From: an uncultured Gammaproteobacteria bacterium
GTDB taxonomy: Bacteria > Patescibacteriota > Patescibacteriia > JACQRZ01
Length of the DNA stretch: 64,000 nucleotides
NCBI GenBank assembly: GCA_964621085.1
Contig: CAZUKY010000001.1
Location: 167,226 to 231,225, forward strand
Direction of reading: 5' to 3'
Shown: piece after piece, positions 28,077-64,000 of the stretch
How the letters are laid out: every line of letters begins with the position of its first letter
How positions within the stretch are numbered: the first letter of the stretch is position 1
Position numbers and translations under genes: made by a program
Notes under the pieces: model-generated
Told to the model about the DNA's origin: nothing
Databases searched by the model: none
Seen by the model: only the letters and a program-made list of their open reading frames with translations

Positions 28077-28100
28077 ATATCCGAATGTATAGGTTGCGCT

Positions 28101-42969: not shown

Positions 42970-43118
42970 ACAAAAAATTACATTCGTCAGATCGATTATC
43001 GCGCGTGTATACCTTAACGTCAATCGCGCAGTAGGGTGAGAGTGGGCGCACTTTTGACATTCAAGCGATTTTTTGCTATAATTATATGATATTAGGTCTG
43101 GCACTATACGGAGGTGTA

Positions 43119-43571
43119 ATGTTCGAGGTAGTCGCTAAGCTAAAGGTGGTATACCTGACCGTGGGCACTCCCACCGCGGAGGATACTAAGTTCCTCTGCG
43201 ACGCCCTCGCGTCGCTTCACAATACGAATGCGGACGAAATCGCAGTCGAGACGATCAACCTGACCGGGAAGAGCTTTGAAGCCCGCGGCAAGTGCGCGCG
43301 CAAAGAGGCTGCAAAGGGGCAGTTGATCATCGCTGACATGTCGACCGGCGAGGCGTTCCGCACCTTGCGCCAGTGTCTGATCGCCGACATCCCCTACTAC
43401 ATCCTGCACGGCGACCGGAAGAAGCGCTCCCTTCGCCTCATCAACGGCGAGCAGGATACGACGGTCTGGCCGAAGAAGGAGCGGCAGCGCCTCGTCACAC
43501 GCGAGACCTCATCGGCCACGATGACCATCAGCGAACGGAAACCGGAGCGCATTCCCTACCGCGACGACTAG
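43119..43571 (+). CDS. Hypothetical protein (150 aa)
   Basis: GGAGG RBS 5 nt before the ATG at 43119. Followed by a terminator hairpin. Confidence 0.4.
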   Translation: MFEVVAKLKVVYLTVGTPTAEDTKFLCDALASLHNTNADEIAVETINLTGKSFEARGKCARKEAAKGQLIIADMSTGEAFRTLRQCLIADIPYYILHGDRKKRSLRLINGEQDTTVWPKKERQRLVTRETSSATMTISERKPERIPYRDD

Positions 43572-43583
43572 GCACAGACGCAC

Positions 43584-43616
43584 AAAGGGGCTGTCCCACA
43601 GGACGGCCCCTTTATT
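43584..43616. terminator. Bidirectional intrinsic terminator between convergent genes
   Basis: aaaggggctgtcc / ggacggccccttt 13-bp stem (one G-U) with loop caca. Followed by T-runs on both strands. Confidence 0.55.
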
Positions 43617-43639
43617 CACTTGGAAGACTCAAGCGCGCT

Positions 43640-45208: not shown

Positions 45209-45232
45209 AGAGTGGTGTATCCTGGCAGAGAA

Positions 45233-47005
45233 TTACAAAGCCCAATCGTCGATCGGGGGGGCGGGTTTTTCCGGATTCTTGGTCGGTGCCGGAGGCTCGG
45301 GCGGCGTAACTGCCGGCGCTGATGGCGCGCGATCGGCAGTATCGCGTTCCCGACTCTCGGCCGGCTGCACTGACGGTTGGCGCCCACCGTCGCGGTGCGG
45401 CTCTTTGCCCTCCAGATTTTTCGTCGGCGAAGCGCTTGTCAGCGCGGATCGCACCGACGAAGATACGGGCGATGGCCGTTTTTTTCGCTTCCGTTTTCGC
45501 GGCGCATCTTCATCGCGTCGCGGCTCTGCAGCAAGATCGCGGAGAGAGAGCGTCTTTTCCGGTGCAGTTGCCCGAGGCGGCATCGGCACTGCACGATCAG
45601 GCGCAGCGTGCGAAAAACCCGAACGCGAGGGCGGCGGAATAACCCGCCCGACTGGAGCAAAGGGACGCTGCGGCATCGCCGCCGCCTCGGCTGCACGCCG
45701 CTCTTTTTCTTTCTGATCCATCGTCTCGGTCCAGCGCCGGATCTTATCATCGACGATCTCGCGGGCGATCGCGTATCGCTCGCGGCTGACCTTGATCACT
45801 TTGTCCAGATTGCCGGTCTTTTCCTCCTCTGACAACGGTGGCAATCCGATCGCGGAAAAAGGATCGGAGGAGACGCCATCGATCATGAGTTTGATGTAGT
45901 AATTGAACTTCGGAATATTCACAAGATCTTCTTCCGTGAATCGCGGCGTAAACTCCTTGACCAAGAAATCCGCATCCGATGCGCCAACACGAAACGCGAT
46001 CATAGTGCCGACGTTGCCAAAGACCGCCGCTGAAACTTTTTCATCCAGCTGCTCGATGTACTGATGGGCGACAATAAGGTTGAGTCGGTACTTTCGCGCT
46101 TCCGACAGGATGTTGGCGAAACTCTCGGTCGCGAAATTTTGAAACTCGTCGACGTATAGGTAGAAGTCGCGGCGTGCGGCCTCGGGCATCTCGACGCGTT
46201 CCATCGCCGAGAGCTGAATTTTGGTGACAAGCATGCCGCCGAGCAAGCGACTGTTGTCCTCGCCGATCCGGCCCTTCGACAAATTCATGATCAGGATCTT
46301 TTGATTATCCATGATCTCGCGGATGTGAATCGATGACTTGACCTGGCCGACGATATTCCGAATCAGGGACGCGGACAAGAACTGACCGACCTTGTTTTGC
46401 ACCGGCGCGATTGCCTCGCTCGCGTACTTGTCGTTCCAGCTCGCAAAGTCATTGACCCAGAACGCCTTTACGACCGGGTCCTGGATCTTTTCGATGACCT
46501 TTTGGCGGTAGAGTTTGTCTGAGAGCATGCGATTCACGCCCAGCATGGTGCTTCCCGGATAGTCCAGGAGCGCGAGCAAGGTGTTGTTGAGAATGTACTC
46601 CATACGCGCGCTCCACACGTCTGGCCAGATTTTTTTGAAGACGCCCATCAGGCCGGAAGAGACCAGATGCTTGTAGCGCTCCTCGACCGTCTCGAGAATA
46701 TTGAACGCGACCGGATACTCCATATCCGCGGGGTTGAGATAGACCACGTCATTGATGCGGTGCGGCGGGATGTACTCCAGAATTTTTTCCGCCAAATCGC
46801 CGTGCGGATCGACAACGCCGACACCCCGGCCGTTGCGGATATCGTCGATGATCATGTTCTCAAGCACGGTTGACTTTCCCATGCCGGTTTTACCGATCAG
46901 GTACACGTGGCGCCTGCGGTCGTCTGTTTTGATGCCGAAACGGCGACGCTGGTTGCGGAACGTCGTCTCGCCGATGGCGGTAATTTCATTCTGATACAAA
47001 GACAT
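45233..47005 (-). CDS. VirD4/TraG/TraD-like type-IV-coupling-protein-family P-loop ATPase. Cytoplasmic form with no TM segment and a Pro/Arg-rich disordered C-terminal tail.
   Basis: Walker A YLIGKTGMGKST at residue ~37, Walker B LYVDEFQNF, and ARKYRLNLIVAHQYIEQL, characteristic of the T4CP family. Confidence 0.65.
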   Translation of the reverse strand: MSLYQNEITAIGETTFRNQRRRFGIKTDDRRRHVYLIGKTGMGKSTVLENMIIDDIRNGRGVGVVDPHGDLAEKILEYIPPHRINDVVYLNPADMEYPVAFNILETVEERYKHLVSSGLMGVFKKIWPDVWSARMEYILNNTLLALLDYPGSTMLGVNRMLSDKLYRQKVIEKIQDPVVKAFWVNDFASWNDKYASEAIAPVQNKVGQFLSASLIRNIVGQVKSSIHIREIMDNQKILIMNLSKGRIGEDNSRLLGGMLVTKIQLSAMERVEMPEAARRDFYLYVDEFQNFATESFANILSEARKYRLNLIVAHQYIEQLDEKVSAAVFGNVGTMIAFRVGASDADFLVKEFTPRFTEEDLVNIPKFNYYIKLMIDGVSSDPFSAIGLPPLSEEEKTGNLDKVIKVSRERYAIAREIVDDKIRRWTETMDQKEKERRAAEAAAMPQRPFAPVGRVIPPPSRSGFSHAAPDRAVPMPPRATAPEKTLSLRDLAAEPRRDEDAPRKRKRKKRPSPVSSSVRSALTSASPTKNLEGKEPHRDGGRQPSVQPAESRERDTADRAPSAPAVTPPEPPAPTKNPEKPAPPIDDWAL

Positions 47006-49444: not shown

Positions 49445-51574
49445 CTATGAGGCGCGGGGCTGAGCCGGCTCTGCATTCTCTCCCGCGGATTTTGCCGGCG
49501 CCATCCACAGCGCGCGGGGGATCTTTTTCCATCCCGCGAAGAACTTCAGGAATATGCGCGTCAGCGAAATTGCGGAGAACATGCTGACCAGAATGCCGAT
49601 GGCAAGCGTCAGGGCGAATCCCTTGATCAGGCTAGCCGAAAACCAGAAGAGAATGGCGCACGTGATCAGCGACGCGACATTACTGTCCCGAATCGAGGTC
49701 CAGGCGCGCCGGAAGCCGTCCCTCAGGCTCGCATCAAGGCCCTTGCCGCTGCGAAGCTCTTCTTTCATGCGCTCGAAGATAAGAACGTTAGCATCCACCG
49801 CCATACCGATCGAAAGAATGAATCCCGCAATGCCCGCAAGCGTCAGTGTCACCGGCCAGATCTTGAAAATCGAGAGCACGATCGCGGTATAGATAAGCAG
49901 TGCGCATACCGCCAGGAGGCCCGGCAGCCGGTAAAAGAAAATCATGAAAATCACCACGAGCAAAAAGCCGAACAAGCCGGCGTACAGGCTCTTTTCCAGC
50001 GACTCGGCGCCGAGCGTCGGGCCGATCGTCTGCTGGCTGACCAGCGTGATGGGTACGGGAAGAGCGCCGGTATTGAGGCGCTGCGCAAGAAGCTTTGCTT
50101 CCTGAAGCGTGAAGTCCCCTTGAATGACTGCCCGGCCGTCGGTAATCGCCTGGTTCACTCGCGGCACGCTGATCGGCTGACCATCCAAAAGCACGGCAAC
50201 CGGTTTTTCGATATTGCGCTTGGTGATCTCGGCAAAGAGCTTTTTCCCTTCGTCATTGAACTCGAGGCCGACTTCCGGCAGGCGGGTCAGCTGGTTTGAC
50301 TCGACATACGCGCGTTTCAGCTGTTTGCCGGTAAGCCCCGTATCCTTCCACATGCCACCATCGGCGGGAAGATAGTCGCTCTCCGATTGCGCGCGGACCA
50401 AAATGCGGGCGATCGAGTACTCGTTCAACGGGCGCGCATCGGTACGATGAATCACATGGTACCCGAACTCAGTCTCGACCGGTGCGGAAATGTCTCCATT
50501 TTTCAAGGCGTATGCGGCCTCCTCAAATGGCGGCACGAGCATGCCTTTCGAGATCCAGCCCAGACTCCCCCCGGATCCCTTGCTTCCGGAATCCGTTGAG
50601 TACTCCTTCGCAAGTTCCCCAAAATTCTGCGGTGTCGCTTTCTGGCGCACTTCTTCGATTTTCTTTCGCGCGTCTTCTTTGGAAAGCTCCGATTCGCAGC
50701 GCGAAGCGCCCTGATAACAGATCAGGATGTGGCTGAGCGCAAGCTCTTCGCCGCTCGTGCGCGTATCCAGGAGTTTCACGACGTTGTACCCCTCGGTGTT
50801 TTTTACCGGAGACGGCGCGATCTCTCCTTTTTTCAAGCTCTTGGCACTCTCCAAAAGTTCGGAGAGCGGCACGTCCGCTGTTTGGGATGAGATCCAGCCG
50901 AGCTCGCCGCCCTTTTGGCTCGTTGCCAAGTCTTCGGAGCGATTTTTCGCAAGATCGACAAAATTGGCGCCGCTCGCACGAGCGTCTTTCAGGATCGCCT
51001 CCGCTTTTGCGCGCGCCGCGGCATTGTTTTTTTCAAGTTCTTTTTTCTGCTCGGGCGTCAACTCGGTGATCCGCTCTTCGGGCGGCATCTCTTCTTTAAA
51101 TTCAAGCAGCGGCGTCTCGCCGATCATACGGATAGCACTCGCCGTGTCCTGGACCCCGGCAAGCTCGACTGCGACGCGATACGAATCGCCCGTTTTCACG
51201 GTGCGGACAATAGGTTCTGCAACGCCAAAGGCGTTCACGCGGCGCTCGATAACGTCGCGCACCCCTTCGACAGCGGCCGTCTGCTCGCTCGGTGCGACTT
51301 TCGACAGATCCGTATCATACACCAGATGCGTCCCGCCTCTCAGATCAAGGCCGAGACGGAACGAGTCGGGAATGGCGGTAAAAGAAATCTGAGGAACCAC
51401 ATCTGCCGGCAGGCCCCATGACTGAAGAGTGGCATTGATCGGCTCGCGATAATGATTGAGCGCGTCAGTGCCTGAATAAAAGGCGGTGAAGGCAAAAAGA
51501 ACGGCGATGCCCAGCATCGTCCAGCGCAACTTGCCGCGCGGCGAGGGGGCGAAAATCTTTCTTAATATATTCAT
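49445..51574 (-). CDS. secD: Protein translocase subunit SecD carrying two tandem parvulin-type (PpiC/PrsA-like) peptidyl-prolyl isomerase domains inserted in the periplasmic head
   Basis: SecD TM1 and head motif LGLDLRGG. Next comes an insert with GGELGWISSQ...EGYNVVKLLD and SHILICYQGA...GGSLGWISKGMLVPPFEEAAYALKNGDISAPVETEFGYHVIHRTD (parvulin signatures). SecD resumes at VAVLLDGQPISVP plus the 6-TM core. Confidence 0.85.
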   Translation of the reverse strand: MNILRKIFAPSPRGKLRWTMLGIAVLFAFTAFYSGTDALNHYREPINATLQSWGLPADVVPQISFTAIPDSFRLGLDLRGGTHLVYDTDLSKVAPSEQTAAVEGVRDVIERRVNAFGVAEPIVRTVKTGDSYRVAVELAGVQDTASAIRMIGETPLLEFKEEMPPEERITELTPEQKKELEKNNAAARAKAEAILKDARASGANFVDLAKNRSEDLATSQKGGELGWISSQTADVPLSELLESAKSLKKGEIAPSPVKNTEGYNVVKLLDTRTSGEELALSHILICYQGASRCESELSKEDARKKIEEVRQKATPQNFGELAKEYSTDSGSKGSGGSLGWISKGMLVPPFEEAAYALKNGDISAPVETEFGYHVIHRTDARPLNEYSIARILVRAQSESDYLPADGGMWKDTGLTGKQLKRAYVESNQLTRLPEVGLEFNDEGKKLFAEITKRNIEKPVAVLLDGQPISVPRVNQAITDGRAVIQGDFTLQEAKLLAQRLNTGALPVPITLVSQQTIGPTLGAESLEKSLYAGLFGFLLVVIFMIFFYRLPGLLAVCALLIYTAIVLSIFKIWPVTLTLAGIAGFILSIGMAVDANVLIFERMKEELRSGKGLDASLRDGFRRAWTSIRDSNVASLITCAILFWFSASLIKGFALTLAIGILVSMFSAISLTRIFLKFFAGWKKIPRALWMAPAKSAGENAEPAQPRAS

Positions 51575-51699
51575 ACAACGTGGAACGCGAAGAGGAAAAT
51601 TGCAATAAAAACGGGCTCCAAACAAACTAGAAATTGAGTATATCCAAAAACAAAAAAAAGGCAATGCCTTTTTCTTGTAATAAGGAGGGTTTAAGGCTG

Positions 51700-52868: not shown

Positions 52869-54125
52869 TCAATGGTTTGGGGTAGCGCTGGAAAGAACCT
52901 TTTCGTATATATTCATGAGCTTTTCGTAAAAATTTTCCGGCGCGTAGACAGACTGGACGTGTGCGCGAGCGGCCATTCCGTGAAGACGAAGCGCCTCAGG
53001 GTCACTCAACGCCTCATTCAGTGTGCGAGAAAGGTCGTGCGCATCGCCGGCCCGGAAGAAAAAGGCGACCTTCGACGGGAATAACTCGGGCAGCGCGCCA
53101 ATGTCTGCAAGAAGCACCGCCTTCCCGCACGCGGCAGCCTCGAGGGCCGTGTAGCCGAATACCTCGTACCACTCGGACGGGACCACGATCAGCGCTGCGT
53201 TTCGCATGAGGGAGAGGATCTCTTCGTGCGACTTGAAACCAAGGAACGAGACGCGATCGACAACGCCGCACTCGGCGGCCTGCCGCTTCAGCCGCTCCTC
53301 TTCCGGACCCGAGCCGGCGATCAGAAGCGGTGCGGACACGTCCTTCATCGCCGCAATCAGAGTGGACACGCCCTTCTCTTCCGATAGTCTGCCGGCGTAC
53401 AGCACATACTCGCCCGACTCGAACGAGGGCTCGATTGCCGAAGCATCGATCGAGTGCGGAATCACCCTTATGCGTTCCGCGGGCATCCCGAATTCCGTCA
53501 GTTTGTTTTTTACGAATTCGGATGGCGCGATCCAGTGCGAGATGACGTTCCGATAGATTCCCGACCAGCGGTGCAGATACATCTCGATGCAGTCAACCAG
53601 CCCCTTAAGTACCGATCCCTGAATCGAGCGATTGAACGCATCTCGGTAAAACTTCCCCCCCTTGCAGGACTCATCGATGCGTCCGTGAGTAAAAAGTTTG
53701 TAATTGGGACAGATCAACTTGTAATCGTGCACGGTGTGCACGACAGGGATATTCCGTTTTCGCGCCGCGTGCAAAATCGAGGGCGAGATCTGATGATAGA
53801 TGTTATGAATGTGCACAATGTCGGGTTGAGCGTCTCTAAGCAGCACTCCGAACTTCCGTTTTGCCTCAAAGGAATAGAGCATGGTAAAAAAGCCCTTGAG
53901 CGCTGACAGCGGTTTTCCAGCCACTGCACGGAATGTTCCCGCATACCGGAACTGCGTCGGCGAGACGAAATATTTTGCGTACGGTGTCTCGTCAGTCTGC
54001 GGCCACGCAACGGAAAACGGGATGACCTCATGTCCGTGCGCTTCCAGAATCCTTTTCATGTCAAAAAAAGACGTCGTGGATCCGTCGCGCTGGTAGTAGT
54101 ACTTGTTGACGAGAATGATTTTCAT
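52869..54125 (-). CDS. Family 4 (GT-B) glycosyltransferase
   Basis: E..G.T.LEAAACGKAVL signature (EVFGYTALEAAACGKAVLLADIGALPE). Confidence 0.8.
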   Translation of the reverse strand: MKIILVNKYYYQRDGSTTSFFDMKRILEAHGHEVIPFSVAWPQTDETPYAKYFVSPTQFRYAGTFRAVAGKPLSALKGFFTMLYSFEAKRKFGVLLRDAQPDIVHIHNIYHQISPSILHAARKRNIPVVHTVHDYKLICPNYKLFTHGRIDESCKGGKFYRDAFNRSIQGSVLKGLVDCIEMYLHRWSGIYRNVISHWIAPSEFVKNKLTEFGMPAERIRVIPHSIDASAIEPSFESGEYVLYAGRLSEEKGVSTLIAAMKDVSAPLLIAGSGPEEERLKRQAAECGVVDRVSFLGFKSHEEILSLMRNAALIVVPSEWYEVFGYTALEAAACGKAVLLADIGALPELFPSKVAFFFRAGDAHDLSRTLNEALSDPEALRLHGMAARAHVQSVYAPENFYEKLMNIYEKVLSSATPNH

Positions 54126-55504
54126 GCGATATGCGCCTTCAACCGCTCGTGTTCGACAAGGATTAATCCGCCGATGAGCCAGAAGTAAAACGCGAGCGTT
54201 CTCACTTCAAGGTATGTCGCCAAAAACGCCTGAAAAGATATAGCCGCAATGACTCCCAAATACCCGAGAGCGAATGCGCGATAAAACTCGTCCGACGAAT
54301 GACGGAAGACAAAGAGTGCGGCGCAGCCGAGATATACGATGAGCGCGATATACAGTGCGAGTCCCAGCGTGCCGATCTCGCCCCAGAGCGAGAACCAGTT
54401 GTTGTCGATGTGGCCCTGGTATCCATGAATGCCGAACGGAAGACCGTGCGCTTCATATTGCACGACATAGTGCAGGGCAGCAGCAGCGCCCGCGCCGTAG
54501 CTTCCGGGACCGACTCCCAAAATAGGTGATGCTGCAACGACTGACAGCGGTGTATGAACGATAAAGTACGCGCGTCCCATGGCGGTATACTCGCCCTTCC
54601 ACCGCTCCAGCGAAAATGCCTCAAAGAACCGGTGAACAATCGTTTGATTCGGAATGTCGATCAGGAAGGCGCTTGTTGCGACGGAGAAAAAGATATACGC
54701 CCCAGCAAGTCCGGCAACGCTCATGCTGCCCCAGAGAATCCGCTTGTCGCGCATAAACACATACCCGATGACAAACGCAGACAACAGCAGTCCAAACCAC
54801 GATGCGCGCGAGTAGGTCAAAAGAAACGCCGGCAGTGCAGCAGCAAACAGAAGCAACAAATACACGTGATCATGGCGATGTCGCCACTGGTACAAGAAGC
54901 CGATGATCAATGTAAGGACAAGTGCGGCAAAGGTCCCCAGCTGGTCATAGCGCCCCATCGTGCCAAAGACCCGCTGCCCCGACTCCCAAAACTGTTCCGT
55001 GCCGCCCGTCAGCTGAATGTCTCCGAATATCTTTCGGTCCGACGGAATCAACAGCTGATCCAACGGCGCGCCGATTCCCGCCTGAAGAATCCCCAGAGCG
55101 CCCTGAAACAGCAAGACACCAAAAAGAATTCCCAAAAGGGCGCGGGAAAAGCGTTCGTGAAGCTGCAACGCAACAGCGATAAACGCGACGAGTATGAAAC
55201 GCACGATCTGTCGAATGCCCAAGACAGCTACCTCGGCAGGCGTCTGATTGAAAAGTGCGGAAGCGACTGCAACGCCGAGAAGCGCGAGAAAGAGCAGTCC
55301 GAACACGCGAGGAATTCTTTTCCAATGGAAAAGCGCATACGCCGCCAGAGAATAAAGGATGACCTCGGGCGCATACCGAACAAAGACGTACAGCGAGTCC
55401 GGGACGAATTTCAAGAAAAACGGCTCAAACGGGAAGTATGCCGCAAGTCCAAGAAGAAGGAAGTGTGGCACAAGCGAGAGTCGATTGGAAAAATTTTGAA
55501 ACAT
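54122..55504 (-). CDS. O-antigen ligase / Wzy-like polymerase family membrane protein
   Basis: 460 aa, ~12 TM helices with a Wzy_C-type periplasmic loop. 4-nt overlap with the upstream GT4 gene. Confidence 0.7.
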   Translation of the reverse strand: MFQNFSNRLSLVPHFLLLGLAAYFPFEPFFLKFVPDSLYVFVRYAPEVILYSLAAYALFHWKRIPRVFGLLFLALLGVAVASALFNQTPAEVAVLGIRQIVRFILVAFIAVALQLHERFSRALLGILFGVLLFQGALGILQAGIGAPLDQLLIPSDRKIFGDIQLTGGTEQFWESGQRVFGTMGRYDQLGTFAALVLTLIIGFLYQWRHRHDHVYLLLLFAAALPAFLLTYSRASWFGLLLSAFVIGYVFMRDKRILWGSMSVAGLAGAYIFFSVATSAFLIDIPNQTIVHRFFEAFSLERWKGEYTAMGRAYFIVHTPLSVVAASPILGVGPGSYGAGAAAALHYVVQYEAHGLPFGIHGYQGHIDNNWFSLWGEIGTLGLALYIALIVYLGCAALFVFRHSSDEFYRAFALGYLGVIAAISFQAFLATYLEVRTLAFYFWLIGGLILVEHERLKAHIA

Positions 55505-55552
55505 ACCTCAACACAGGAAGCTAAGAAGCTACTAACAGTCTGCCTCATCTTT

Positions 55553-55715
55553 GAGATCTCTGCAAAAGTCCACTTCGATGATGTTTGTTCCAGAATCGAG
55601 CGAGCCGCCGCAGGGTCGACGAAGCTGTATCCGTAGCGATACAGTGAGGAGACACTGCGAGTGGCGCAGCCGATTCTGGGGCAAACAGCGCGGAGGGGAC
55701 TTTTGTAGAGATCTC
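55553..55715. repeat. Imperfect 19-bp inverted repeat pair (gagatctctgcaaaagtcc ... ggacttttgtagagatctc) ~125 bp apart, at the left border of the GC-rich island
   Basis: Arms at 55553-55571 and 55697-55715 are reverse complements with a single mismatch. Located in the gap between the O-antigen ligase start and the lipoprotein stop. Confidence 0.4.
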
Positions 55716-55730
55716 GAGTATAAATGAGAA

Positions 55731-55760
55731 GGCGCCCCGTCCCGAAGAGGGAGGGGCGCC
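55731..55760 (-). terminator. GC hairpin (ggcgcccc / ggggcgcc) downstream of the minus-strand lipoprotein gene; putative terminator
   Basis: 8-bp perfect GC stem with a 14-nt loop, 16 nt past the stop codon. T-rich tract on the minus strand after the stem. Confidence 0.35.
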
Positions 55761-55775
55761 CGAATGTGCGCTTGG

Positions 55776-56594
55776 CTACTGGTTCCAGGTGATCCCGCCG
55801 GAGCTGGTGGAGCCGGAGGACGAGGAACCGGAGGCCGCGGGCGAGGCCGGCAGCTCGAGGGTGTTCGTGGACTGGGTCGCCGTGAGCGTGGGAATCTCGA
55901 TGCTGGTCGAGCCAGTCGCGATCGTGTCGAGCACGTTGACCGAGCCCGTGGAGTGCCCGGTGGCGACGGTGATCGACTTGGTCGAGCCGTTGGACAGAGT
56001 CACGACGAAGGTCTCGAATCCGGTCAGCCCGGTCACGACGTTCTGGGACTTGCCCGAAACGGTGGTCATCGGAACATCCACCGACTTCGAGCCGACCGCG
56101 AGCGTCTTGTCGTTGAAGGAGACGGGAGACGTGCTGCCGGTCGAACCCGACGACGACTTCTCCCCGTCCTTCGACGGTACAGCCTCGCTCTTCCGCAGGA
56201 GGTACTTGCTCTCCTTCTGGAAGACCGTGACCACGAGCTTTGAGTTGGCCGAGAGACCCTCGAGGGTCGCGGTCGCCATGCCGAGCGTCACGTAGGGATT
56301 GGCCGGAAGCATGTCAGCGGACCGGGTTTCGGAGACGGACGCCGCCGTTCCGGTCACCGCGGCCGAGATGACCACGCTGCCGGACTTGGGGAGATCCGTG
56401 ACCCCGCTCAGGTCCACCTGCACCGCCAGCCCCTTGGACAGGTAGTAGGGCTTGACGCTCAACTTGTCCGAGGACTCGGTCTTGACCTCGAGGGTCGCGA
56501 CCTCCTGGCTGGGCCCGAAGGGGCAGCCGGTGAGCAGAACGAGCATCCCCGCCAGGGCGAGGACGCGGAAGGAGCCGAACAGCGGCTTCTTCAT
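55776..56594 (-). CDS. Lipoprotein with Ser/Thr-rich repetitive region (ORF opens at 56717; MKKPLFGSF start preferred). Part of the GC-rich island.
   Basis: Signal peptide plus lipobox LLTGC. Repetitive VTG/SxS composition. G+C visibly much higher than the flanking genes. Confidence 0.55.
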   Translation of the reverse strand: MKKPLFGSFRVLALAGMLVLLTGCPFGPSQEVATLEVKTESSDKLSVKPYYLSKGLAVQVDLSGVTDLPKSGSVVISAAVTGTAASVSETRSADMLPANPYVTLGMATATLEGLSANSKLVVTVFQKESKYLLRKSEAVPSKDGEKSSSGSTGSTSPVSFNDKTLAVGSKSVDVPMTTVSGKSQNVVTGLTGFETFVVTLSNGSTKSITVATGHSTGSVNVLDTIATGSTSIEIPTLTATQSTNTLELPASPAASGSSSSGSTSSGGITWNQ

Positions 56595-56763
56595 TGATGT
56601 ACCTCCTTCACACCCTGGGGATCCAGGGACGCGCGTCTGATATGCGCTGCCAACAGGCGAAACGCTGGGCACTATTATTGCACGTAATGACGAGTTTGTC
56701 AAGACTCTTGAACACATCAGTGATACAGAAGAGCTTAACTATACGAAAACCGACCCCAAACCC

Positions 56764-56792
56764 TTGACAGATGAGGCATTTTTTGATAGTAT
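56764..56792 (+). promoter_or_regulatory. Consensus-like sigma70 promoter (TTGACA, 17 nt spacer, TAGTAT) for the secreted-protein gene
   Basis: TTGACA at 56764-56769 and TAGTAT at 56787-56792. AAAGGAG RBS 7 nt before the ATG at 56951. Confidence 0.5.
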
Positions 56793-56950
56793 TAAGCGGT
56801 CGCATATCTTCTGCCGAAGAGCAGAAATAGGGCGATTGAAGCTTGAAAATCAAACAAAATTTGGTTCAGATGTCTTCGGAACGTCTGAAACCGCATACCA
56901 CGGGGAATCCCCGCCACTGGCTGGTGGCGTTCGACGAAAGGAGTTACTCC

Positions 56951-58321
56951 ATGTTCATCCGTAAGACGTTCGCCAGCCTGCTGGCCGTCCTCGGTATCCT
57001 CTGCGCAGCGGCTCCGGCGGATGCGCACGGCAAGTCCACGGCCCCCGCCATTGTCAACGACCACGTCATCGTCCTGCCAAACGGCAAGACGGTCTTCGTG
57101 GGCGACTTCAACGCCGGGATCCACAAGATCGACACTCTCGAGTACGGTAAGGACGACAGCGTGGTCAGGTTCACGGGCGTTCGCACCTGCATCGGCAACG
57201 AGATCGAAGTGGCAGCGAATCTCTCCGGGATGACCTTCACGACCGCGTCCGGCAACGGATACGAGGTCGTGAAGAAGAAGTCCTCGGCCACGAAGCTGAC
57301 GCTGAAGAACATCGGCGCAGCCGCTGCGGACTTCGACGTCGTCCTCAAGGCCGACGGCCGGCTTGCTGGCAAGCACGTCTGGCTCACGGCCAGGAACGTC
57401 TCGACCAACTGCAAGAACGAAACGGTCAAGGCGTGGACCCGCGTGATCCAGGTCACCGAGCCGTGGTTCCAACCGCGGTTCGGGGGCCAGCTCTGGGTCA
57501 ACAACTACGACCAGAGCGCCTGGGCATCCTCGCCCACAGCGTCCTCGTCGCACCTGACCCAGGACGTCCTCGCACTCGCAAGAATGCACGTCACGGGCGG
57601 GTTCGCTCTTCTCGGCGGCGCAGCCGTCGGGCGGACGACCCACAAGTCCGATCCGAACTTCTCGGACCGGACCCTCCCGTGGACCACCCCCGGCTTCGCG
57701 GCGCTGTCGCTCCTGTTCGGTGTCGAGCATGACTATCGGAGCGGTTGGTTCGCCAACCGGCTCCAGCTCATGGGCGGCCCGAACATATCATTGAACGACA
57801 GCTTCCTCCTCGGCACCAAGCGGCCGACGGAGGGCGTGCCGCCACTCAACTTCCTGGCCAGGAGTCGCACCCAGCTCGGCCTGGTGAAGTGGTCCAACCA
57901 CTTCGCCAACGACGGAGGGCGGGCGTTCTACAACACGGATGCCTACATTCCACTCCTCCACTTGGACAAGGAGCGGTTGAATACCCTTGGGGCCTACCTC
58001 GGGTACAACTACAACATCTCCTTCCAGGAGCGGGACATCCACGGCCGTGCCGGTACGGTCGCCACGCAGTGGCTCGGCGGCGCCATGTACAATGGCAACG
58101 CCGGCAATGGGCTCGGCAACTACTTCCTGAAGCTCGGCGGCGGGTTCGCGAATCAGGCCGTCAACCTTCAGATCCAGGGCGGCATCTCCATTATGGACTC
58201 GGATCTGGATCCGGAGTCTCTGGCGGACGTCGCGCGGAAATTGACCGTACAGCCGCATTCGGATCTCGATCCGAAGTCCTTGGCAGACATGCGGCAATTG
58301 GCCGGAAAGGAGACCAAGTGA
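56951..58321 (+). CDS. Secreted protein with signal peptide, hypothetical (ORF opens at 56843). GC-rich island.
   Basis: Signal peptide MFIRKTFASLLAVLGILCAAAPADA. Gly/Asn-rich C-terminal half. No family recognised. Confidence 0.55.
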   Translation: MFIRKTFASLLAVLGILCAAAPADAHGKSTAPAIVNDHVIVLPNGKTVFVGDFNAGIHKIDTLEYGKDDSVVRFTGVRTCIGNEIEVAANLSGMTFTTASGNGYEVVKKKSSATKLTLKNIGAAAADFDVVLKADGRLAGKHVWLTARNVSTNCKNETVKAWTRVIQVTEPWFQPRFGGQLWVNNYDQSAWASSPTASSSHLTQDVLALARMHVTGGFALLGGAAVGRTTHKSDPNFSDRTLPWTTPGFAALSLLFGVEHDYRSGWFANRLQLMGGPNISLNDSFLLGTKRPTEGVPPLNFLARSRTQLGLVKWSNHFANDGGRAFYNTDAYIPLLHLDKERLNTLGAYLGYNYNISFQERDIHGRAGTVATQWLGGAMYNGNAGNGLGNYFLKLGGGFANQAVNLQIQGGISIMDSDLDPESLADVARKLTVQPHSDLDPKSLADMRQLAGKETK

Positions 58322-59181
58322 GGAAGTACCTCCCCTACGTAGTTGGTGCAGTCCTCGCCGGCTGCACCGGATACCCGACCTCCCCTCGGTACCAGGGCCC
58401 TACCGCGTCGGCCGGAGCTTTGGCTCCTGCGTCGACCTCGACGGGGAACCTCGCTCCCACGGCCGCATCCGGCGGCTGCGGGACACCGGCAACTGCGACA
58501 GCGCCGTCAGCACCGGCCAACGACGGCATCCGGTGGAACCAGACCGTGAGCCAAGACTGCGTCCAGCAGTCCAGCCCATCGTCTCCCGCCGCGACGGCCA
58601 GCGCCCCGGCGCAGAGCTCGCAGCCAGCGAGCACTGCAACCGGAAACGCGATCGACCCTGCGTCGGTTACAACCACAGTCGGCGGCAGCTCGCAGCCAGC
58701 GAGCACGACGACCGGACAGCAACCGACCACGTCGACGCAACCGGCGCAGGTCGCCCGGCCTCGGGTACAGTTGGTCGGGACTCGACTCGAGTTCGAGTTC
58801 CCGCTCAACAATGTCCCGGGGTTGGTCGGCACGGAGGTGCAGCAGCTCCTCCAGCCGGCCAGCACCCAGGTGTACCTCGGGTCTGACCGACTCGGTTACA
58901 TTACGGATTCGCCGACGCCACGCGGCCGGTCCTGCGGAGCGCTCACTCAGCGCAGCCCGCAGATCAACATCGCCGGCACACTCCTTCCCGGACCGCTGGT
59001 CTGGTACGCCTCCTGCGACAGTGCCGGCACCGGCGACGGGGGAAACATCCTCTTCCGATGGGACTACCCGCGGTCATCCGACCGCTGGGGGTACATCGAG
59101 GGGATGGACTTCGGGCCAGGCGTCGGATGGCGCTTCGACCCGAATCCCGCCTGCCCCCGCTGCAGGCAACTCATCTGGTGA
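58318..59181 (+). CDS. Lipoprotein with S/T/P/Q-rich linker and Cys-containing C-terminal domain (GTG start overlapping the preceding stop). GC-rich island.
   Basis: VRKYLPYVVGAVLAGC lipobox. Internal direct DNA repeat agctcgcagccagcgagcac, once at ~58614 and again at ~58686. The ORF track merges it into a longer overlapping ORF opening at 57745. Confidence 0.5.
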   Translation: MRKYLPYVVGAVLAGCTGYPTSPRYQGPTASAGALAPASTSTGNLAPTAASGGCGTPATATAPSAPANDGIRWNQTVSQDCVQQSSPSSPAATASAPAQSSQPASTATGNAIDPASVTTTVGGSSQPASTTTGQQPTTSTQPAQVARPRVQLVGTRLEFEFPLNNVPGLVGTEVQQLLQPASTQVYLGSDRLGYITDSPTPRGRSCGALTQRSPQINIAGTLLPGPLVWYASCDSAGTGDGGNILFRWDYPRSSDRWGYIEGMDFGPGVGWRFDPNPACPRCRQLIW

Positions 59182-59186
59182 TCTTT

Positions 59187-59230
59187 AAAGACCCGCCGTG
59201 CATCCAGCACGCGCGGGTCTTCTTTCTTTC
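59187..59230 (+). terminator. Intrinsic terminator after the island's last gene
   Basis: agacccgc / gcgggtct 8-bp stem with a structured 16-nt loop, followed by tctttctttc. Confidence 0.5.
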
Positions 59231-59247
59231 TAGAAATTTTCCTAGAG

Positions 59248-59383
59248 ACAGAGGGGGCATTCCTTCAGACGCCGCCCGCAGCCGGCGGGCATGGTTTTTC
59301 GAGTGAAGCGAGAAAATTGCCGGCGAGGATAGAGGCGGATTCTCGCAGGGAATCGCCGTGCGGCTGAAGGAATGCCCCTCTGT
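59248..59383. repeat. Imperfect ~21-bp inverted repeat pair (acagagggggcattccttcag ... ctgaaggaatgcccctctgt) ~95 bp apart, at the right border of the GC-rich island
   Basis: Arms at 59248-59268 and 59364-59383 are reverse complements with a 1-nt indel. The spacer contains a gcccgc/gcgggc hairpin followed by ttttt. Confidence 0.4.
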
Positions 59384-59390
59384 CGACCGT

Positions 59391-60341
59391 CTACACCTCG
59401 TCAACGTGCCAGTGCTGCAAAGTATCGTAATCCGTAAATCGAAATATCGCATGCACCTTTTTGCCACCGAGGACGGCCGGCAGCCAGTGGGGATCATCCA
59501 GCCACATCGAGTCGAACGGCACGGCATCTGCATCGAACCACTGGGGACGCATCTCTTCTGATTCTGCCGGCTCGCCCTCGTATTCGGTAATACGGAACAC
59601 GAAGACCTCCATTTCCAATCGCTCATGTTCATAGAAAAAGCGCAGAACTCCCACCTCTTCACTTGCGCGCGCGGTAATGCCCGCCTCTTCCGATAACTCG
59701 CGCATTGCCGCATCGCGGATACTCTCCCCGCCCTCCACCTTGCCGCCAAAACCATTCCACTTGCCTGCGCCGAATCCCCGCTTCTTCATTCCTAACAGCA
59801 CCCGCGCGCCATCCATTACAAGACACATCGTCAGAATTTTCTTGTGCCATCCGACAGAACTCGAATCACCAATCGACTGCACTGCTGTGCGAAGCGACCT
59901 CTCATACTCGCCAAGCGCATGCCGTTTGTGGCCCTCGAGCAGCCAGGAGCTCGACTGCACCTTGCCGCCCTGACCGACGCCAAATACCATCTCCGCGCCG
60001 ATCTCATTGCAGACAGGCACCTCGGGGATATTGTCATGCGTACGGTCCCCGCCGTTGCAAAATATATCCGGCCGCACGGCCCGCAGCGCCTCACAGACGC
60101 TGTAGTCGCTTGTATCCGGAGTATGTTTAGTAAGCACGACCTCGTCCACCTCTTTCAACGCGGCAAGCACTTCCGCCCGCTCGTGTTCGGGCATGAAAAC
60201 GAAACCCTTTTTCATGCGGAGCCAGTTGTCGTTATTCAAAATGACGACCAGCTTGTCGCCAAATTTTTTCGCTTCTTTGATATACCGTATGTGTCCGGCA
60301 TGGATAGGATCGAATCCGCCGCTTACCGCTACAACGCGCAT
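59391..60341 (-). CDS. Bifunctional nucleotidyltransferase (cytidylyltransferase-like HxGH fold)-NUDIX hydrolase fusion (NadM-Nudix-like architecture)
   Basis: N-terminal VSGGFDPIHAGHIRYI (HxGH nucleotidyltransferase motif). C-terminal Nudix box GGKVEGGESIRDAAMRELSEEAGI. Confidence 0.7.
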   Translation of the reverse strand: MRVVAVSGGFDPIHAGHIRYIKEAKKFGDKLVVILNNDNWLRMKKGFVFMPEHERAEVLAALKEVDEVVLTKHTPDTSDYSVCEALRAVRPDIFCNGGDRTHDNIPEVPVCNEIGAEMVFGVGQGGKVQSSSWLLEGHKRHALGEYERSLRTAVQSIGDSSSVGWHKKILTMCLVMDGARVLLGMKKRGFGAGKWNGFGGKVEGGESIRDAAMRELSEEAGITARASEEVGVLRFFYEHERLEMEVFVFRITEYEGEPAESEEMRPQWFDADAVPFDSMWLDDPHWLPAVLGGKKVHAIFRFTDYDTLQHWHVDEV

Positions 60342-60405: not shown

Positions 60406-60966
60406 ATGGACGCATATCATCCCCTGTTTTGCATCGTTGGCGCATCGGGAAGCGGAAAAACAACGCTGATCACGTCTCTTGTCCAACGGCATCCGCAACT
60501 CCTCGAGATCGTTCCTTCTACAACGACGCGGAGAAAAAAACCCGAGGAGGAGGTGCGCATGTTCAAAAAGTTCTACCGCCGCATACATCGGCATAGCACC
60601 TTTGAGGAACGACTCGAGCAAGGGGACTTCATCGGCGCAGACCAGTACGCCGGCGAGTGGTACGGCACCAACCGGTACACGCTCCTCCGGATTCTTCACC
60701 ACCGGAGCGGCGTTATCGCGGTAACGGAGAAGGGCGCAGAAGCGCTCCGCGTGGAAGGGGTCACACGGGAATTTCAAGTCTGCGTCATCGAAATCCTGCC
60801 GGACGGCTCTGATACAAGCGGCATTTCCCAAGAGCGGCAGAACGCCGACCGCGCGCGTCGCGGCACGGTGCTGGCAGACCACGTGATCGTCAACTCGTTT
60901 GCAGAAGACGGGCTCGATCACGCACTCTCGCAACTTGAAAAAATAGTTCTCGCAAACCTTGCATAA
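60406..60966 (+). CDS. Guanylate-kinase-like P-loop kinase (ORF opens at 60367; RBS-supported start at 60406)
   Basis: P-loop IVGASGSGKTTL, then S-TTR-K...E..G-DF (STTTRRKKPEEE...GDFIGADQYAGEWYGT) as in Gmk. C-terminal half is divergent. GGAGG RBS. Confidence 0.5.
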   Translation: MDAYHPLFCIVGASGSGKTTLITSLVQRHPQLLEIVPSTTTRRKKPEEEVRMFKKFYRRIHRHSTFEERLEQGDFIGADQYAGEWYGTNRYTLLRILHHRSGVIAVTEKGAEALRVEGVTREFQVCVIEILPDGSDTSGISQERQNADRARRGTVLADHVIVNSFAEDGLDHALSQLEKIVLANLA

Positions 60967-61051
60967 AGCCAGGGCTCACGCAGTCCCTGGCTTTGTTATT
61001 TTAAAACGTCCGCGGAGGGCAAAGCGCACACTCCGCGGACCGAAAGAGCTA

Positions 61052-61696
61052 CTAGGCCTCCCTGTGCCTCAAAGCTTCAAACAACTCGTCTTCAAGCTTG
61101 AAGGTCTCGACGAGACGCTTGGCCGTGGTGTAGCGAGCTGCTTGCCGCTTATACCACTCCTCAGCAACCTCGCCCAAACGATCGAATATCTCCTTCATGC
61201 CGATCGAGCGCACTTGCGAGTCGGGTGCCTTCAGTTCGCTGAAGAGACTCGCAAGTTTCGTCTCCTGAATGAGAACATTGGTGGCCCGCTCGATCCACGA
61301 CCCGCTCGAACCGCCCGGCCGGTATTTGTCGAACTGAATGATCACCCGAATCCACTCGGCTTTCTGGGTCAGAAAGAGGATCTCGCGGCTGCCGCTCTCG
61401 TCGATTCGGCAATGGCAGAAGACAAGCGGCATCGCGATACCCGTCGTGGTGAAGATTGTCCGCTTGCTCAGGTTTCTTACCTCAGGCTCGCTTGAATTCA
61501 GCGAGTGCCCCATCCCGAATTCCTCAGACTCCAGTCGGTAGTCGCCGAGACGCGGAAGTCGCATTTCCGCAAGCCGCGGCTTCAAAGCGCGGCGGCGAGT
61601 CTCGATGAGAGCATCCCATTCCTCCGAAGTCCGGGGACGTTTGGCGCAAATCAATTTGGCGCCTTCGGACAACAGTTCCATTTCGACCTCCTTCAA
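61052..61696 (-). CDS. Hypothetical protein (214 aa)
   Basis: Continuous ORF. No family recognised. Confidence 0.4.
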   Translation of the reverse strand: MKEVEMELLSEGAKLICAKRPRTSEEWDALIETRRRALKPRLAEMRLPRLGDYRLESEEFGMGHSLNSSEPEVRNLSKRTIFTTTGIAMPLVFCHCRIDESGSREILFLTQKAEWIRVIIQFDKYRPGGSSGSWIERATNVLIQETKLASLFSELKAPDSQVRSIGMKEIFDRLGEVAEEWYKRQAARYTTAKRLVETFKLEDELFEALRHREA

Positions 61697-61822
61697 CGCG
61701 GGGAATGCCCCTTGCCATTCGCCTCAGGGAACGCCCATCGGCGAAGGTGATCGTATCTCTTTTTAAAAAGAGTATCAAGGGTTTTTGACTGCTGTGTAAA
61801 TGCCGAGGCAGCGCTTGGGGCA

Positions 61823-62500
61823 CTAGGTTAATGGATACTTCTTTGTTGCACCACTGATCATACTGCAAAACTCATCTATTTCGGTAGCATACTCCCTCAG
61901 AAATACTCGAAGGTCATTCGAAAATGCATCGGGAAACTTTTCCATCTCAGATGAAAGGTCGTTCAAAGTATACCACAATACACCTTGCGCTTCGCCGTCT
62001 GCCGGCTTAACACTGCCATCGTAGAGACCAAAGTAGACATGGGTCTTATTTGCGATTTCAACTGTTTCGTCGCCAAACACTTTTTTGAGATAAAATATTT
62101 TACTCTGGATGTGCTTCACAATGGCAATAGTCTGCAGGTAATTTTGCAAGAGATCAAATGCCTTTCTAAAGTCTTCTGTTGACTTCATGACAATGGAGGG
62201 AGTCTGCAGCTCCTGCACTGTTTCAACCATTACGGTAAAATCTGGCGCATCCCCGTAGCGGATATGACCACCCATAGACTTGTCAATCAACCCTGGATTA
62301 TGGGCTTTATGGTAATTCCTCTTCTGAAGCAGGAGCTCCTTCCTTGTGTTGAAAATAAAGATTGCAACAATATCAGCGGCCCGTGTTGGCTTTTGTGCAT
62401 TCCGATAGGCGCTGATCTGTTCAGCATAGAACTCATCACGATCCATCGGTATTGCCGAATCAGGATTGTTTAGGAAGTATGTATTAATTATCTCTTGCAT
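61823..62500 (-). CDS. NUDIX-superfamily protein (divergent Nudix box, IDI-type-1-like). AT-rich segment.
   Basis: KAHNPGLIDKSMGGHIRYGD...VMVETVQEL resembles the Nudix motif of isopentenyl-diphosphate isomerase type-1-like hydrolases. Low G+C. Confidence 0.45.
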   Translation of the reverse strand: MQEIINTYFLNNPDSAIPMDRDEFYAEQISAYRNAQKPTRAADIVAIFIFNTRKELLLQKRNYHKAHNPGLIDKSMGGHIRYGDAPDFTVMVETVQELQTPSIVMKSTEDFRKAFDLLQNYLQTIAIVKHIQSKIFYLKKVFGDETVEIANKTHVYFGLYDGSVKPADGEAQGVLWYTLNDLSSEMEKFPDAFSNDLRVFLREYATEIDEFCSMISGATKKYPLT

Positions 62501-62645
62501 AGCGTCTGAATGTATTCTTGGGCACTATTTTTATGCACCATAACAGCGATTGAAGTCCTAGCTTAATAGAGTAGATCGCTCCTATAGTATTTCTGTATCG
62601 TAACTCATAGTTCTCCGCGCCGTGACAGCGGCCGAAGTGATATTT

Positions 62646-63104
62646 TTATGAGGTGCTACTTAGCTTAATTTCTTCCGCAAGTCGCATCAGCTCCGACATA
62701 TCAGCCTGCGGACCTAATTGAGTGGATACATAACCCTCGTACCTCTCGAAAAACACCTGATCTTTCACCCACATCTCCTGAAATTTTCCCTTAATGCCAT
62801 GAAGTGGATACAACTTAATATGTGCGTCATTTACACTCATTCCCTCCATGACCATTGCCACCCTAGAAATCTGCAGTCCCTTTTCAATCATCTTCGCTAC
62901 AGATTGTGAAGTAAACATAAAATCCGAATATACATCCTTCGGTAAGTCAAATGCATAGGAATCATAATGTACTTTTGGAAGTACAAGCGTCATCCCTCTC
63001 GTGTTTGGATTCACGTCTAATATTGCTAGGAATTTTTCATCTTCCCAAATTCTAGTAGATTCAATTTCCCCAGCTACAATTTTGCAAAAAATACAATTCC
63101 GCAT
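62646..63104 (-). CDS. HIT (histidine triad) family protein with a degenerate triad
   Basis: N-terminal CIFCKIVAGEI. The triad region reads NDAHIKLYPLHG rather than the canonical HxHxHxx. Confidence 0.65.
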   Translation of the reverse strand: MRNCIFCKIVAGEIESTRIWEDEKFLAILDVNPNTRGMTLVLPKVHYDSYAFDLPKDVYSDFMFTSQSVAKMIEKGLQISRVAMVMEGMSVNDAHIKLYPLHGIKGKFQEMWVKDQVFFERYEGYVSTQLGPQADMSELMRLAEEIKLSSTS

Positions 63105-63291
63105 AACATTTCACTATTTATTATGACAACGTTTGAAGTGCAATTTTATGTATGCATGCGGCACTCATTCCTTAAAGCGCTCGGGATCATGTTCGATATC
63201 TGGACGATTTGAAAGTTTATGTCGTCGACTTTTGATCCATGATACAAAGTTCTTTGCATATTACCTACGCGCCGCGACAACGCTTGTAGTG

Positions 63292-63798
63292 TTAATTTAA
63301 CGGATATTTTAATCTGCGTATTACGGGATATATAATTGAATGGCAGCTTCTCTCATCTAGATCCTCGAGGGGCTTCCATTCAATCTTACTGATCTCGTCG
63401 CCGTCATACGTATTGATGACTTCGATATCTTGCTCTGGCCAGAGAAGTTCCGCAAGGTATACCATAATTACGGAGTGATAGAACTTTTTTTCGTAACGGT
63501 GATAGAAGTTACTTTCGCTTACATGAAATGGCGTGTCAGACAACGTAATCGAATATCCCGTCTCCTCATAAACCTCTCGCTTAATCCCCTCTGCAATACT
63601 CTCGCCTTCATCCACGCCACCACCTGGCAATTCCCATAATATGTTCCACGTTGGAACAACCATGAGGACCTTATCACATTCTGATCGGACAAGACCATAT
63701 CCCGAGATTCTCCAATAGACTCTTTCCCCTTGAGGAAGTTGGTAGGGCTGACCATTCGCGTCAAGAAAAACGTTGAGGGGATTAGAATTATTTTGCAC
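63292..63798 (-). CDS. NUDIX hydrolase
   Basis: Nudix box WELPGGGVDEGESIAEGIKREVYEETGY. Confidence 0.8.
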   Translation of the reverse strand: MQNNSNPLNVFLDANGQPYQLPQGERVYWRISGYGLVRSECDKVLMVVPTWNILWELPGGGVDEGESIAEGIKREVYEETGYSITLSDTPFHVSESNFYHRYEKKFYHSVIMVYLAELLWPEQDIEVINTYDGDEISKIEWKPLEDLDERSCHSIIYPVIRRLKYPLN

Positions 63799-63839
63799 AT
63801 TATGCTCAATGGCACTTTTTGAAGTGCTATCTAAATGGA

Positions 63840-63998
63840 TTATTCGCCTTCATCGTCTTCCTCGCATTCGGGACGCATATCCTCCAAATCGCCAAATATA
63901 TCTCTTGCCACTTCAAAAGCATCTTGATCTTTTGCGGCAAACCATATCCAAGAGGACGCTCCTTCCATAGAATCGCACGATACCAAAAGATCATCCGT
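63840..63998 (-). CDS. 3' end of a gene entering from the right edge (…ARDIFGDLEDMRPECEEDDEGE*), hypothetical
   Basis: Manual minus-strand translation is open for 52 codons from the window edge to TAA at 63840-63842. Acidic C-terminal tail. Confidence 0.3.
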   Translation of the reverse strand, partial: TDDLLVSCDSMEGASSWIWFAAKDQDAFEVARDIFGDLEDMRPECEEDDEGE

Positions 63999-64000
63999 GA

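Follow-up and report, generated by a model that had tools for sequence, protein, structure and literature searches.

Has the bacterium behind contig CAZUKY010000001.1 (assembly GCA_964621085.1) imported a block of cell-surface genes from another organism, or did these genes arise in its own lineage? The question is raised by a 64,000-nucleotide stretch of this contig, hereafter the window, in which three neighboring genes, here called A, B, and C, form an island rich in guanine plus cytosine (GC) at about 55700-59240. A preliminary description had taken this island for a laterally acquired surface-protein cassette. We treated the host as a Patescibacteria-type bacterium (candidate phyla radiation, CPR) with approximately 54% GC and without a close sequenced relative, because the protein encoded to the right of the island, a cytidylyltransferase-Nudix fusion, had its best relatives in metagenome-assembled genomes of Patescibacteria and Saccharibacteria at 45-63% identity, and because all window proteins that were looked up were singletons at 90% identity. 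The best explanation of the whole, which we hold with a little more than even confidence, is that a small three-gene cassette at approximately 55731-59230 was horizontally acquired by this Patescibacteria-type genome.

The compositional anomaly is real and strong. The maximum-scoring GC-rich segment ran from 55731 to 59167 with a GC of 0.639, compared with 0.54 for the rest of the window, and sliding GC climbed from about 0.52-0.55 to 0.62-0.68 inside the island (about 55.7-59.2 kb), the values on both sides spanning approximately 0.50-0.58. A 3.5-kb segment placed at 55700 had a GC of 0.634, whereas the other 3.5-kb segments averaged 0.540 (standard deviation 0.020) and reached at most 0.578. 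GC at third codon positions (GC3) was 0.923 in A, 0.864 in B, and 0.795 in C, versus 0.40-0.79 in about 50 other open reading frames (ORFs). Thus, the rise in GC and GC3 noticed in the preliminary description was borne out. The sliding-GC and tetranucleotide check that it had proposed likewise singled out the island as a clear outlier, as the GC-normalized tetranucleotide profiles of 3-kb segments correlated with that of the whole window at r = 0.39-0.44 in the island but at a mean of 0.88 elsewhere.

A, B, and C are real genes, and a strong third-position GC periodicity fits the reading frames of all three. Gene A (55776-56594, minus strand) encodes a 272-aa lipoprotein, whose N terminus MKKPLFGSFRVLALAGMLVLLTG runs up to the Cys of the lipobox LLTG-C. 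Gene B (56951-58321, plus strand) encodes a 456-aa secreted protein with an AxA signal peptide, whose N terminus MFIRKTFASLLAVLGILCAAAPADA is followed by HG, the leader ending in APADA; this start was preferred over that of the 483-aa database version because a Shine-Dalgarno (SD) site and a normal signal peptide are found there. Gene C (58318-59181, plus strand), which starts with GTG and overlaps the stop codon of B (GTGA), encodes a 287-aa lipoprotein with the lipobox VLAG-C and the N terminus (M)RKYLPYVVGAVLAG ahead of the Cys. As read from the sequence, both A and C have a positive n-region, a hydrophobic h-region, and a lipobox of the form [LVI][ASTVI][GAS]C, and B has the N-terminal signal peptide and the AxA motif of a Sec/signal peptidase I substrate with no further membrane segment. 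Hydrophobic 19-residue windows occurred only at the N termini of A and B, and none elsewhere in B exceeded a Kyte-Doolittle value of 1.6. The claim that the island holds only lipobox or signal-peptide proteins was therefore correct. Neither Lgt nor LspA was found among the window ORFs scanned.

The three products differ in their layout. In A, which has 17% Ser and 12.5% Thr, a Ser/Gly linker joins a beta-sandwich (residues 41-130, approximately) to a second beta-rich region, and the protein finishes with a tail of Ser and Gly whose last residues are GGITWNQ; there was no clear internal duplication. Its single-sequence AlphaFold2 (AF2) model had a predicted local distance difference test score (pLDDT) of 49.6 overall and of 65-80 at residues 41-130, which were modeled as the beta-sandwich; in a Foldseek search, the best Protein Data Bank (PDB) matches were FN3/Ig-like and adhesin-repeat domains, all of them weak (E of at least 6e-3 and template modeling score of at most 0.54 on the target). 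B begins with a beta-rich domain, continues with a core rich in Gly, Asn, and aromatic residues, and carries at its C terminus two tandem copies of a 20-aa repeat, SDLDPxSLADxxxL. The single-sequence AF2 model of B had a pLDDT of 37.8 overall, with only a beta-rich stretch at about 57-148 reaching 50-68, and a fold search with this model gave no usable match. An outer-membrane beta-barrel was considered for B and rejected, given its few amphipathic beta windows, the C terminus AGKETK, the lack of a Pfam match, and an unconfident AF2 model without a barrel. The stalk of C is a low-complexity stretch of approximately 130 aa, which is rich in Ala, Ser, Thr, Pro, and Gln and contains an internal repeat; a globular C-terminal domain of about 135 aa with four Cys follows. 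A short motif is shared by A and C, being GGITWNQ at the end of A (55779-55800) and DGIRWNQ after the first low-complexity stretch of C (58521-58542). This GI[T/R]WNQ motif was rejected as a sign of relationship, since it rose only weakly above chance (its score was reached in 81 of 2000 shuffles) and A and C have no overall similarity.

Codon choice separated the island from the GC3-rich genes of the host itself. With rising GC3, host genes increased GGC/(GGC+GGG) from 0.66 to 0.84 and lowered CGG/(CGG+CGC) from 0.34 to 0.28 (seven GC3-rich host genes). The window has no ribosomal-protein genes, and one chaperone gene, ClpB, served as the proxy for highly expressed genes; it had GGG at 1/53 and CGG at 6/63. 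The island, however, had GGG at 27/104 and CGG at 20/40 (p = 0.004 and 3e-5, respectively, versus the GC3-rich host genes). Similarly, AAG (40/41), GAG (24/27), and GAC (35/45) dominated in the island, whereas ClpB was near 50% for these. Furthermore, dinucleotide relative abundance at codon junctions (position 3 to 1) differed between the island and host gene sets of equal size (p of about 0.006-0.01). The codon comparison suggested in the preliminary description thus showed that the island does not simply extend the host's own GC3-rich genes; a uniform push toward G or C at all third positions is the pattern of a GC-rich mutational background, not that of the host's selection.

A feature independent of composition agrees with a foreign origin, namely that all three island genes are led by SD sites in a host that mostly goes without them. 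AAGGAG(G) was found 5-7 nt upstream of the start in 3/3 island genes (AAGGAGG at 56602-56608 for A, AAGGAG at 56938-56943 for B, and AAGGAG at 58307-58312 for C), versus at most 7/44 host ORFs at any candidate start and about four at a plausible start (hypergeometric p of about 0.007 for 3/3 versus 7/44). Native-looking genes, including those for Mur ligase, FtsI, MraW, ClpB, AlaRS, and SecDF, had no such site. The anti-SD motif is missing from the 16S rRNA of part of the Parcubacteria (PMC9297842), and the scarcity of SD sites in the window fits this reported loss. If the island was imported, strong SD sites could serve as a practical import marker in lineages largely without SD initiation. 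The host genes with a plausible SD site are the Wzx gene (30492-31961), a GC-rich orphan (9160-10149), and two genes in 60406-61696 (60406-60966 and 61052-61681); these SD-led genes are few and accessory-looking, and two of them adjoin the Nudix fusion on its right. The GC-rich orphan (9097-10149, probable start at 9160) has a GC of 0.626, a GC3 of 0.78, an AAGGAG site, and no Pfam or NCBIfam match, and its codons are island-like (CGG 0.38, AAG 0.86, GAG 0.73, and TTC 0.94). This orphan may have been imported as well, from a similar source.

The island also carries its own transcription signals, and the preliminary description was right to assign it a promoter and terminators: two near-consensus divergent promoter-like sites and a hairpin after both 3' ends were found. 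Scanning for TTGACA-17-TATAAT gave three sites in the region versus 0.6 expected, and the divergent sites lie in the 356-bp gap between A and B. The site for A (56674-56702, minus strand) consists of TTGACA, a 17-nt spacer, and AATAAT with an extended TG (11/12 matches). That for the B-C operon (56764-56792, plus strand) consists of TTGACA, a 17-nt spacer, and TAGTAT with an extended TG (10/12 matches), and a leader of about 150 nt separates it from B. The likely terminator of A (55731-55761, minus strand) is a GC-rich stem-loop 15 nt past the stop codon, followed by UUCUCAUUUAU; it escaped the terminator scan because of its weak T-run. The B-C terminator (59188-59232, plus strand) has a 14-bp GC-rich stem (59188-59221) followed by the T-rich UCUUUCUUUCU and was missed by the scan, which takes short loops only and a stricter T-run. 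The edges of the island had been placed in unusually long gaps with inverted repeats. The repeats were confirmed in both gaps, and the gaps are long (271 bp on the left and 209 bp on the right, most window genes abutting); they are not unique, however, as gaps of 313-664 bp occur elsewhere.

Searches for relatives of the island were negative. A, B, and C had no match in Pfam, NCBIfam, PHROGs, or PDB sequences. In a word index of 5.8 billion proteins, A and B matched only themselves and C matched nothing; an exhaustive phmmer search against 1.84 billion representatives, which covered B only (A and C being searched by the word index only), returned B itself. There was no match for the island by blastn against plasmids and phages, for A and C by tblastn against plasmids, or in viral contigs scanned with A, B, and the C-terminal domain of C. 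In genome and metagenome collections, 61 loci of the Nudix fusion were found, the best 63% identical; they came without the neighboring genes and without A, B, or C. Two systems of sequence variation were also considered and rejected: a diversity-generating retroelement target, as no direct repeat of at least 30 nt involved the island besides the internal linker repeats and no reverse transcriptase among the scanned ORFs, and tandem-repeat phase variation, on a repeat search of the island.

Several observations weigh against import. The search for a donor lineage that the preliminary description had recommended, exhaustive for B and by word index for A and C, gave only self-matches or none, so that no donor can be named. 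No integrase, transposase, or recombinase was detected by family match in or beside the island, no flanking direct repeats above chance were found, and the only tRNA gene of the window lies 55 kb away, at 376-450. GC at first codon positions was not raised in the island genes, which their Ser/Thr-rich composition may explain. The A-B intergenic region had a GC of 0.486, as in host intergenic DNA, and its promoter-like sites are of the same type as the host's own, 13 sites of at least 10/12 being present window-wide, mostly intergenic ahead of genes and including a 12/12 site at 43054. This host-like gap is unexpected if the high GC3 reflects only the mutational bias of a donor, and together with the host-type promoters it means that the cassette cannot be simply a piece of high-GC DNA from a donor. 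Furthermore, by the Karlin codon-bias measure, the island deviated less from ClpB (0.36) than from the average gene (0.47), and the preference for CTC over CTG and for GTC over GTG is common to island and host. The shared preference could reflect a related, GC-richer donor or long residence. Other Patescibacteria are reported as the source of most transfers into this group (PMC12455944). The view of the island as a laterally acquired cassette thus stands on composition, codons, and SD sites, but not on a donor, mobility gene, adjacent tRNA, or direct repeat; apart from composition, the usual hallmarks of a genomic island are absent. On balance, we judge it moderately probable that the island is imported DNA.

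Alternatively, A, B, and C could be native, lineage-specific, fast-evolving, and very highly expressed surface genes, whose GC3 was raised by selection for C-ending codons and by a Ser/Thr/Gly/Ala-rich composition. Such genes would be expected to have near-consensus promoters, the host-like GC of the A-B gap would need no explanation, and rapidly evolving surface proteins are usually orphans. Codon usage nearer to that of ClpB (the ratio of Karlin bias relative to all genes to that relative to ClpB was 1.07-1.30) agrees with high expression, which strong SD sites can also mark, and the host trend to TTC, TAC, AAC, ATC, ACC, GTC, and CTC over CTG is also seen in the island. However, the island makes frequent use of GGG and CGG, two codons that ClpB and the seven GC3-rich host genes avoid; ClpB shows nothing like the extreme AAG, GAG, and GAC usage of the island, thin as a one-chaperone proxy is; the codon-junction dinucleotide signature differs; and ClpB and other core genes lack the SD sites that high expression would be taken to explain. 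A native origin is therefore possible, but we consider it rather unlikely.

Both edges of the island are occupied by long hairpins. The left hairpin (55544-55729, plus strand) is a 186-nt imperfect palindrome of about 75 base pairs between the terminator of A and the start of the Wzy_C gene (55504), with a minimum free energy (MFE) of -113.4 kcal/mol on the plus strand and -85.1 on the minus strand. It was the most extreme 200-nt fold in the 64 kb (z of -6.4 after regression on GC), and the segment 55540-55775, which adds the A terminator hairpin, had a z of -12.7 versus shuffles. The right hairpin (59247-59385, plus strand) is a 139-nt imperfect palindrome with arms of 19-26 nt that are 92-95% complementary (MFE -77.9 on the plus and -70.0 on the minus strand); 5 nt separate its end from the stop codon of the cytidylyltransferase-Nudix gene (59391), and it contains a second intrinsic terminator on the plus strand (59274-59290, then a T-run). 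The right edge is among the strongest folds of the window (z near -3.3 to -3.5), and 59182-59395, including the B-C terminator, had a z of -6.8. The whole layout is symmetric: hairpin, terminator, A, divergent promoters, B-C, terminator, and hairpin. The two hairpins have no sequence similarity to each other or to a third hairpin at 5790-5950, and no second copy of either was found in the 64-kb window. An Rfam search at E of at most 1 gave no match for either hairpin or for the B leader, its sole match being a chance mir-203 inside gene B, and a search of the window at the gathering threshold found tRNA only. A repeat family within the window (ERIC/REP/MITE-like) was rejected for the hairpins, as they are single-copy, unrelated, and without terminal duplications. 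That two very stable and unrelated hairpins bracket the cassette exactly is beyond routine.

When the hairpins were folded as plus-strand RNA, nearly every position departing from Watson-Crick pairing was a G-U pair; on the plus versus the minus strand, such pairs numbered 9 versus 1 in the left hairpin, 5 versus 0 in the right one, and 7 versus 2 in the third. This plus-strand excess occurred in all three whatever the orientation of the neighboring genes. The skew hints at selection on structured plus-strand RNA; the numbers are small, and strand-specific mutation bias is an alternative.

In another view, the island would have been carried as cargo by a mobile element or would be what remains of one (for example a phage moron, an insertion directed at hairpins, or an integron-like cassette), and the hairpins would be its recombination or target sites. 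The symmetric layout and the rank of both hairpins among the strongest folds of the window would suit this explanation. Nevertheless, no recombinase is evident, and the flanks are glycan-assembly, Nudix/HIT, and kinase genes. The hairpins share no sequence and have no other copies in the window, and their arms, read by eye, lack attC-like R-box ends. Phage and plasmid DNA, viral contigs, and PHROGs gave no match, and there are no flanking direct repeats. A mobile element is thus improbable. As for the integron cassette in particular, it was rejected because the island has its own promoters, because the arms begin GAGATCTC and GACAGAGG instead of RYYYAAC/GTTRRRY, and because no integrase was among the ORFs scanned against Pfam. 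Least credible of all, and very improbable, is an assembly or binning chimera, in which 3.5 kb of the Patescibacteria contig would stem from a co-occurring organism of high GC: the sharp shift exactly between two repeat-like hairpin-forming stretches and the metagenome-type assembly without close relatives would allow it, but it needs two joins 3.5 kb apart within a 239.6-kb contig, both intergenic and truncating no gene, while the control region inside the island resembles the host in both its GC and its type of promoter, the hairpins are imperfect and hence not perfect-palindrome amplification artifacts, and an abundant GC-rich donor should have left homologues in the searched collections, where none was found.

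What might an acquired cassette of this kind do? In the scheme we propose, A would be transcribed leftward and B-C rightward from the shared 356-bp control region with its two near-consensus sigma-70-type promoters, and each transcription unit would end in its own terminator hairpin. B and C are probably translationally coupled, which would point to a fixed stoichiometry. All three proteins would be exported via Sec; A and C would then sit on the outer side of the membrane, each held by a lipid on its N-terminal Cys, with B being either released or held by A and/or C. With A carrying putative Ig/FN3-like beta-sandwich modules and C presumably holding its Cys-containing globular head on a long stalk, the three proteins most likely form a cell-surface layer or an adhesin-type structure, whose stalks could be O-glycosylated by the adjacent glycan-assembly genes (GT4, GT4, and Wzy_C). 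Judged from sequence features, a role in surface architecture or attachment is the most reasonable reading, whereas the host or partner interaction that the preliminary description had thought of is a guess. Glycosylation of the stalks may occur; by analogy, it is a lead and not a result, drawn from the resemblance of the stalks to O-glycosylated low-complexity stretches and from the adjoining GT4 and Wzy_C genes. Assignment of the Wzy_C neighbor as a PglL-type O-oligosaccharyltransferase was rejected, as no PglL-specific model matched, and a polysaccharide polymerase or ligase is equally possible.

If the cassette was imported, ultra-small symbiotic bacteria would refresh their cell surface with genes from outside their lineage, and it is probably the cell surface, more than any other part, that determines the partner cells to which they can attach. 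Either way, A, B, and C add three orphans to the large uncharacterized surface proteome of these bacteria. A bolder version, which we regard as a long shot, is that an epibiotic Patescibacterium recently imported a cell-contact module of two stalked, glycosylated lipoproteins and a secreted partner from a GC-rich, SD-using organism, possibly its own host, and that the module was rewired to host-type promoters and insulated at either end by long structured hairpin RNAs. Were this true, recent imports into an SD-poor host could be recognized by the SD sites that they retain.

The surroundings of the island combine core and accessory functions. Its left neighbor is a Wzy_C-family (PF04932) gene (54122-55504) with two adjoining GT4 genes. 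To the right, the Nudix fusion (stop codon at 59391) is accompanied by a guanylate-kinase-like gene, which also flanks the island. The 64-kb window further holds a cell-division and cell-wall cluster (Mur ligase, an FtsI-type penicillin-binding protein, and MraW), genes for ClpB, PriA, a short AlaRS, a VirD4/TraG-like coupling protein, and a SecDF-peptidyl-prolyl isomerase fusion, and a glycan-assembly run with a Wzx-type flippase, GT2, GT4, and two Wzy_C proteins. The latter, members of the O-antigen-ligase family encoded at 25797-28112 and 54122-55504, include one fused to a GT2 glycosyltransferase, and lipopolysaccharide is not expected in this organism. The SecDF fusion is a single ORF of 739 aa (49445-51664) with SecD/SecF domains and two PPIC-type peptidyl-prolyl isomerase matches; its domains suggest a foldase joined to a subunit of the translocon.

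The window is compositionally mosaic overall. A second outlier, a low-GC block at 61800-64000 (GC 0.42, GC3 0.40-0.47), lies 2.6 kb from the island and holds two Nudix genes (61823-62500 and 63292-63798) with a HIT-family gene (62646-63104) between them, so that three Nudix genes fall within 5 kb, counting the cytidylyltransferase-Nudix fusion. Short low-GC patches (GC 0.43-0.46) with small ORFs were also found at 17900-19300 and 24300-24800. The tRNA gene, tRNA-Glu(CUC) (376-450, minus strand), is enclosed by a 23-nt inverted repeat (364-386/444-466), and a 45-nt repeat at 498-542 is 80% identical to part of the tRNA region; this repeat may have arisen as a fragment of a tRNA or have been left behind by an old integration. 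Finally, a 161-aa orphan with a GC3 of 0.79 lies downstream of the perfect 12/12 sigma-70-type promoter (43054-43082). Near it (43054-47005) are the gene for the VirD4/TraG-like coupling protein (45233-47005) and two further orphans with a GC3 of 0.70-0.73, and the whole is probably a type IV secretion-like cluster.

Parts of this locus recall systems known from elsewhere. The Vsp/Vlp/Vsa loci of Mollicutes encode variable surface lipoproteins of wall-less, reduced-genome bacteria, and they share with the island a reduced-genome host, lipobox-anchored proteins with low-complexity repeats, strong promoters, and little or no outside homology. The island, however, has no paralogue family, invertible promoter, or homopolymer or tandem-repeat switch, and we do not claim membership. 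General O-glycosylation of the PglL type, as in Neisseria and Burkholderia, acts on lipoproteins with Ala/Ser/Pro/Thr-rich stretches. The island lipoproteins have such stretches and adjoin Wzy_C (PF04932) and GT4 genes; unlike in PglL systems, the Wzy_C protein beside the island matches no PglL-specific model. The beta-sandwich modeled at residues 41-130 of A (pLDDT 65-80), the sole moderately confident part, resembles the Ig-like/FN3 domains of bacterial adhesins, from which it differs in that the matches are weak and come without a sequence-family match. In function, the cargo would resemble at most such Ig-like adhesins and the variable surface lipoproteins found in other bacteria with reduced genomes. 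ERIC/REP/MITE-like elements are long palindromic intergenic elements, as which the two hairpins, imperfect palindromes in intergenic DNA, could pass, except that they are single-copy in 64 kb.

The closest comparison is with the genomic islands of Patescibacteria themselves, in which islands and gene transfer are common and up to 13% of genome length is attributed to transfer (Gios et al. 2025, mSystems, PMC12455944). For most of the transfers described there, a partner genome could be identified (PMC12455944), whereas the present island has no detectable donor or homologue and no mobility gene and carries purely orphan envelope cargo. In common with the reported islands, it is a small block of deviant GC and tetranucleotide composition that carries accessory genes in an ultra-small, streamlined genome. 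Outside any known protein or RNA family, the island is thus a small islet of a kind already reported in Patescibacteria (PMC12455944).

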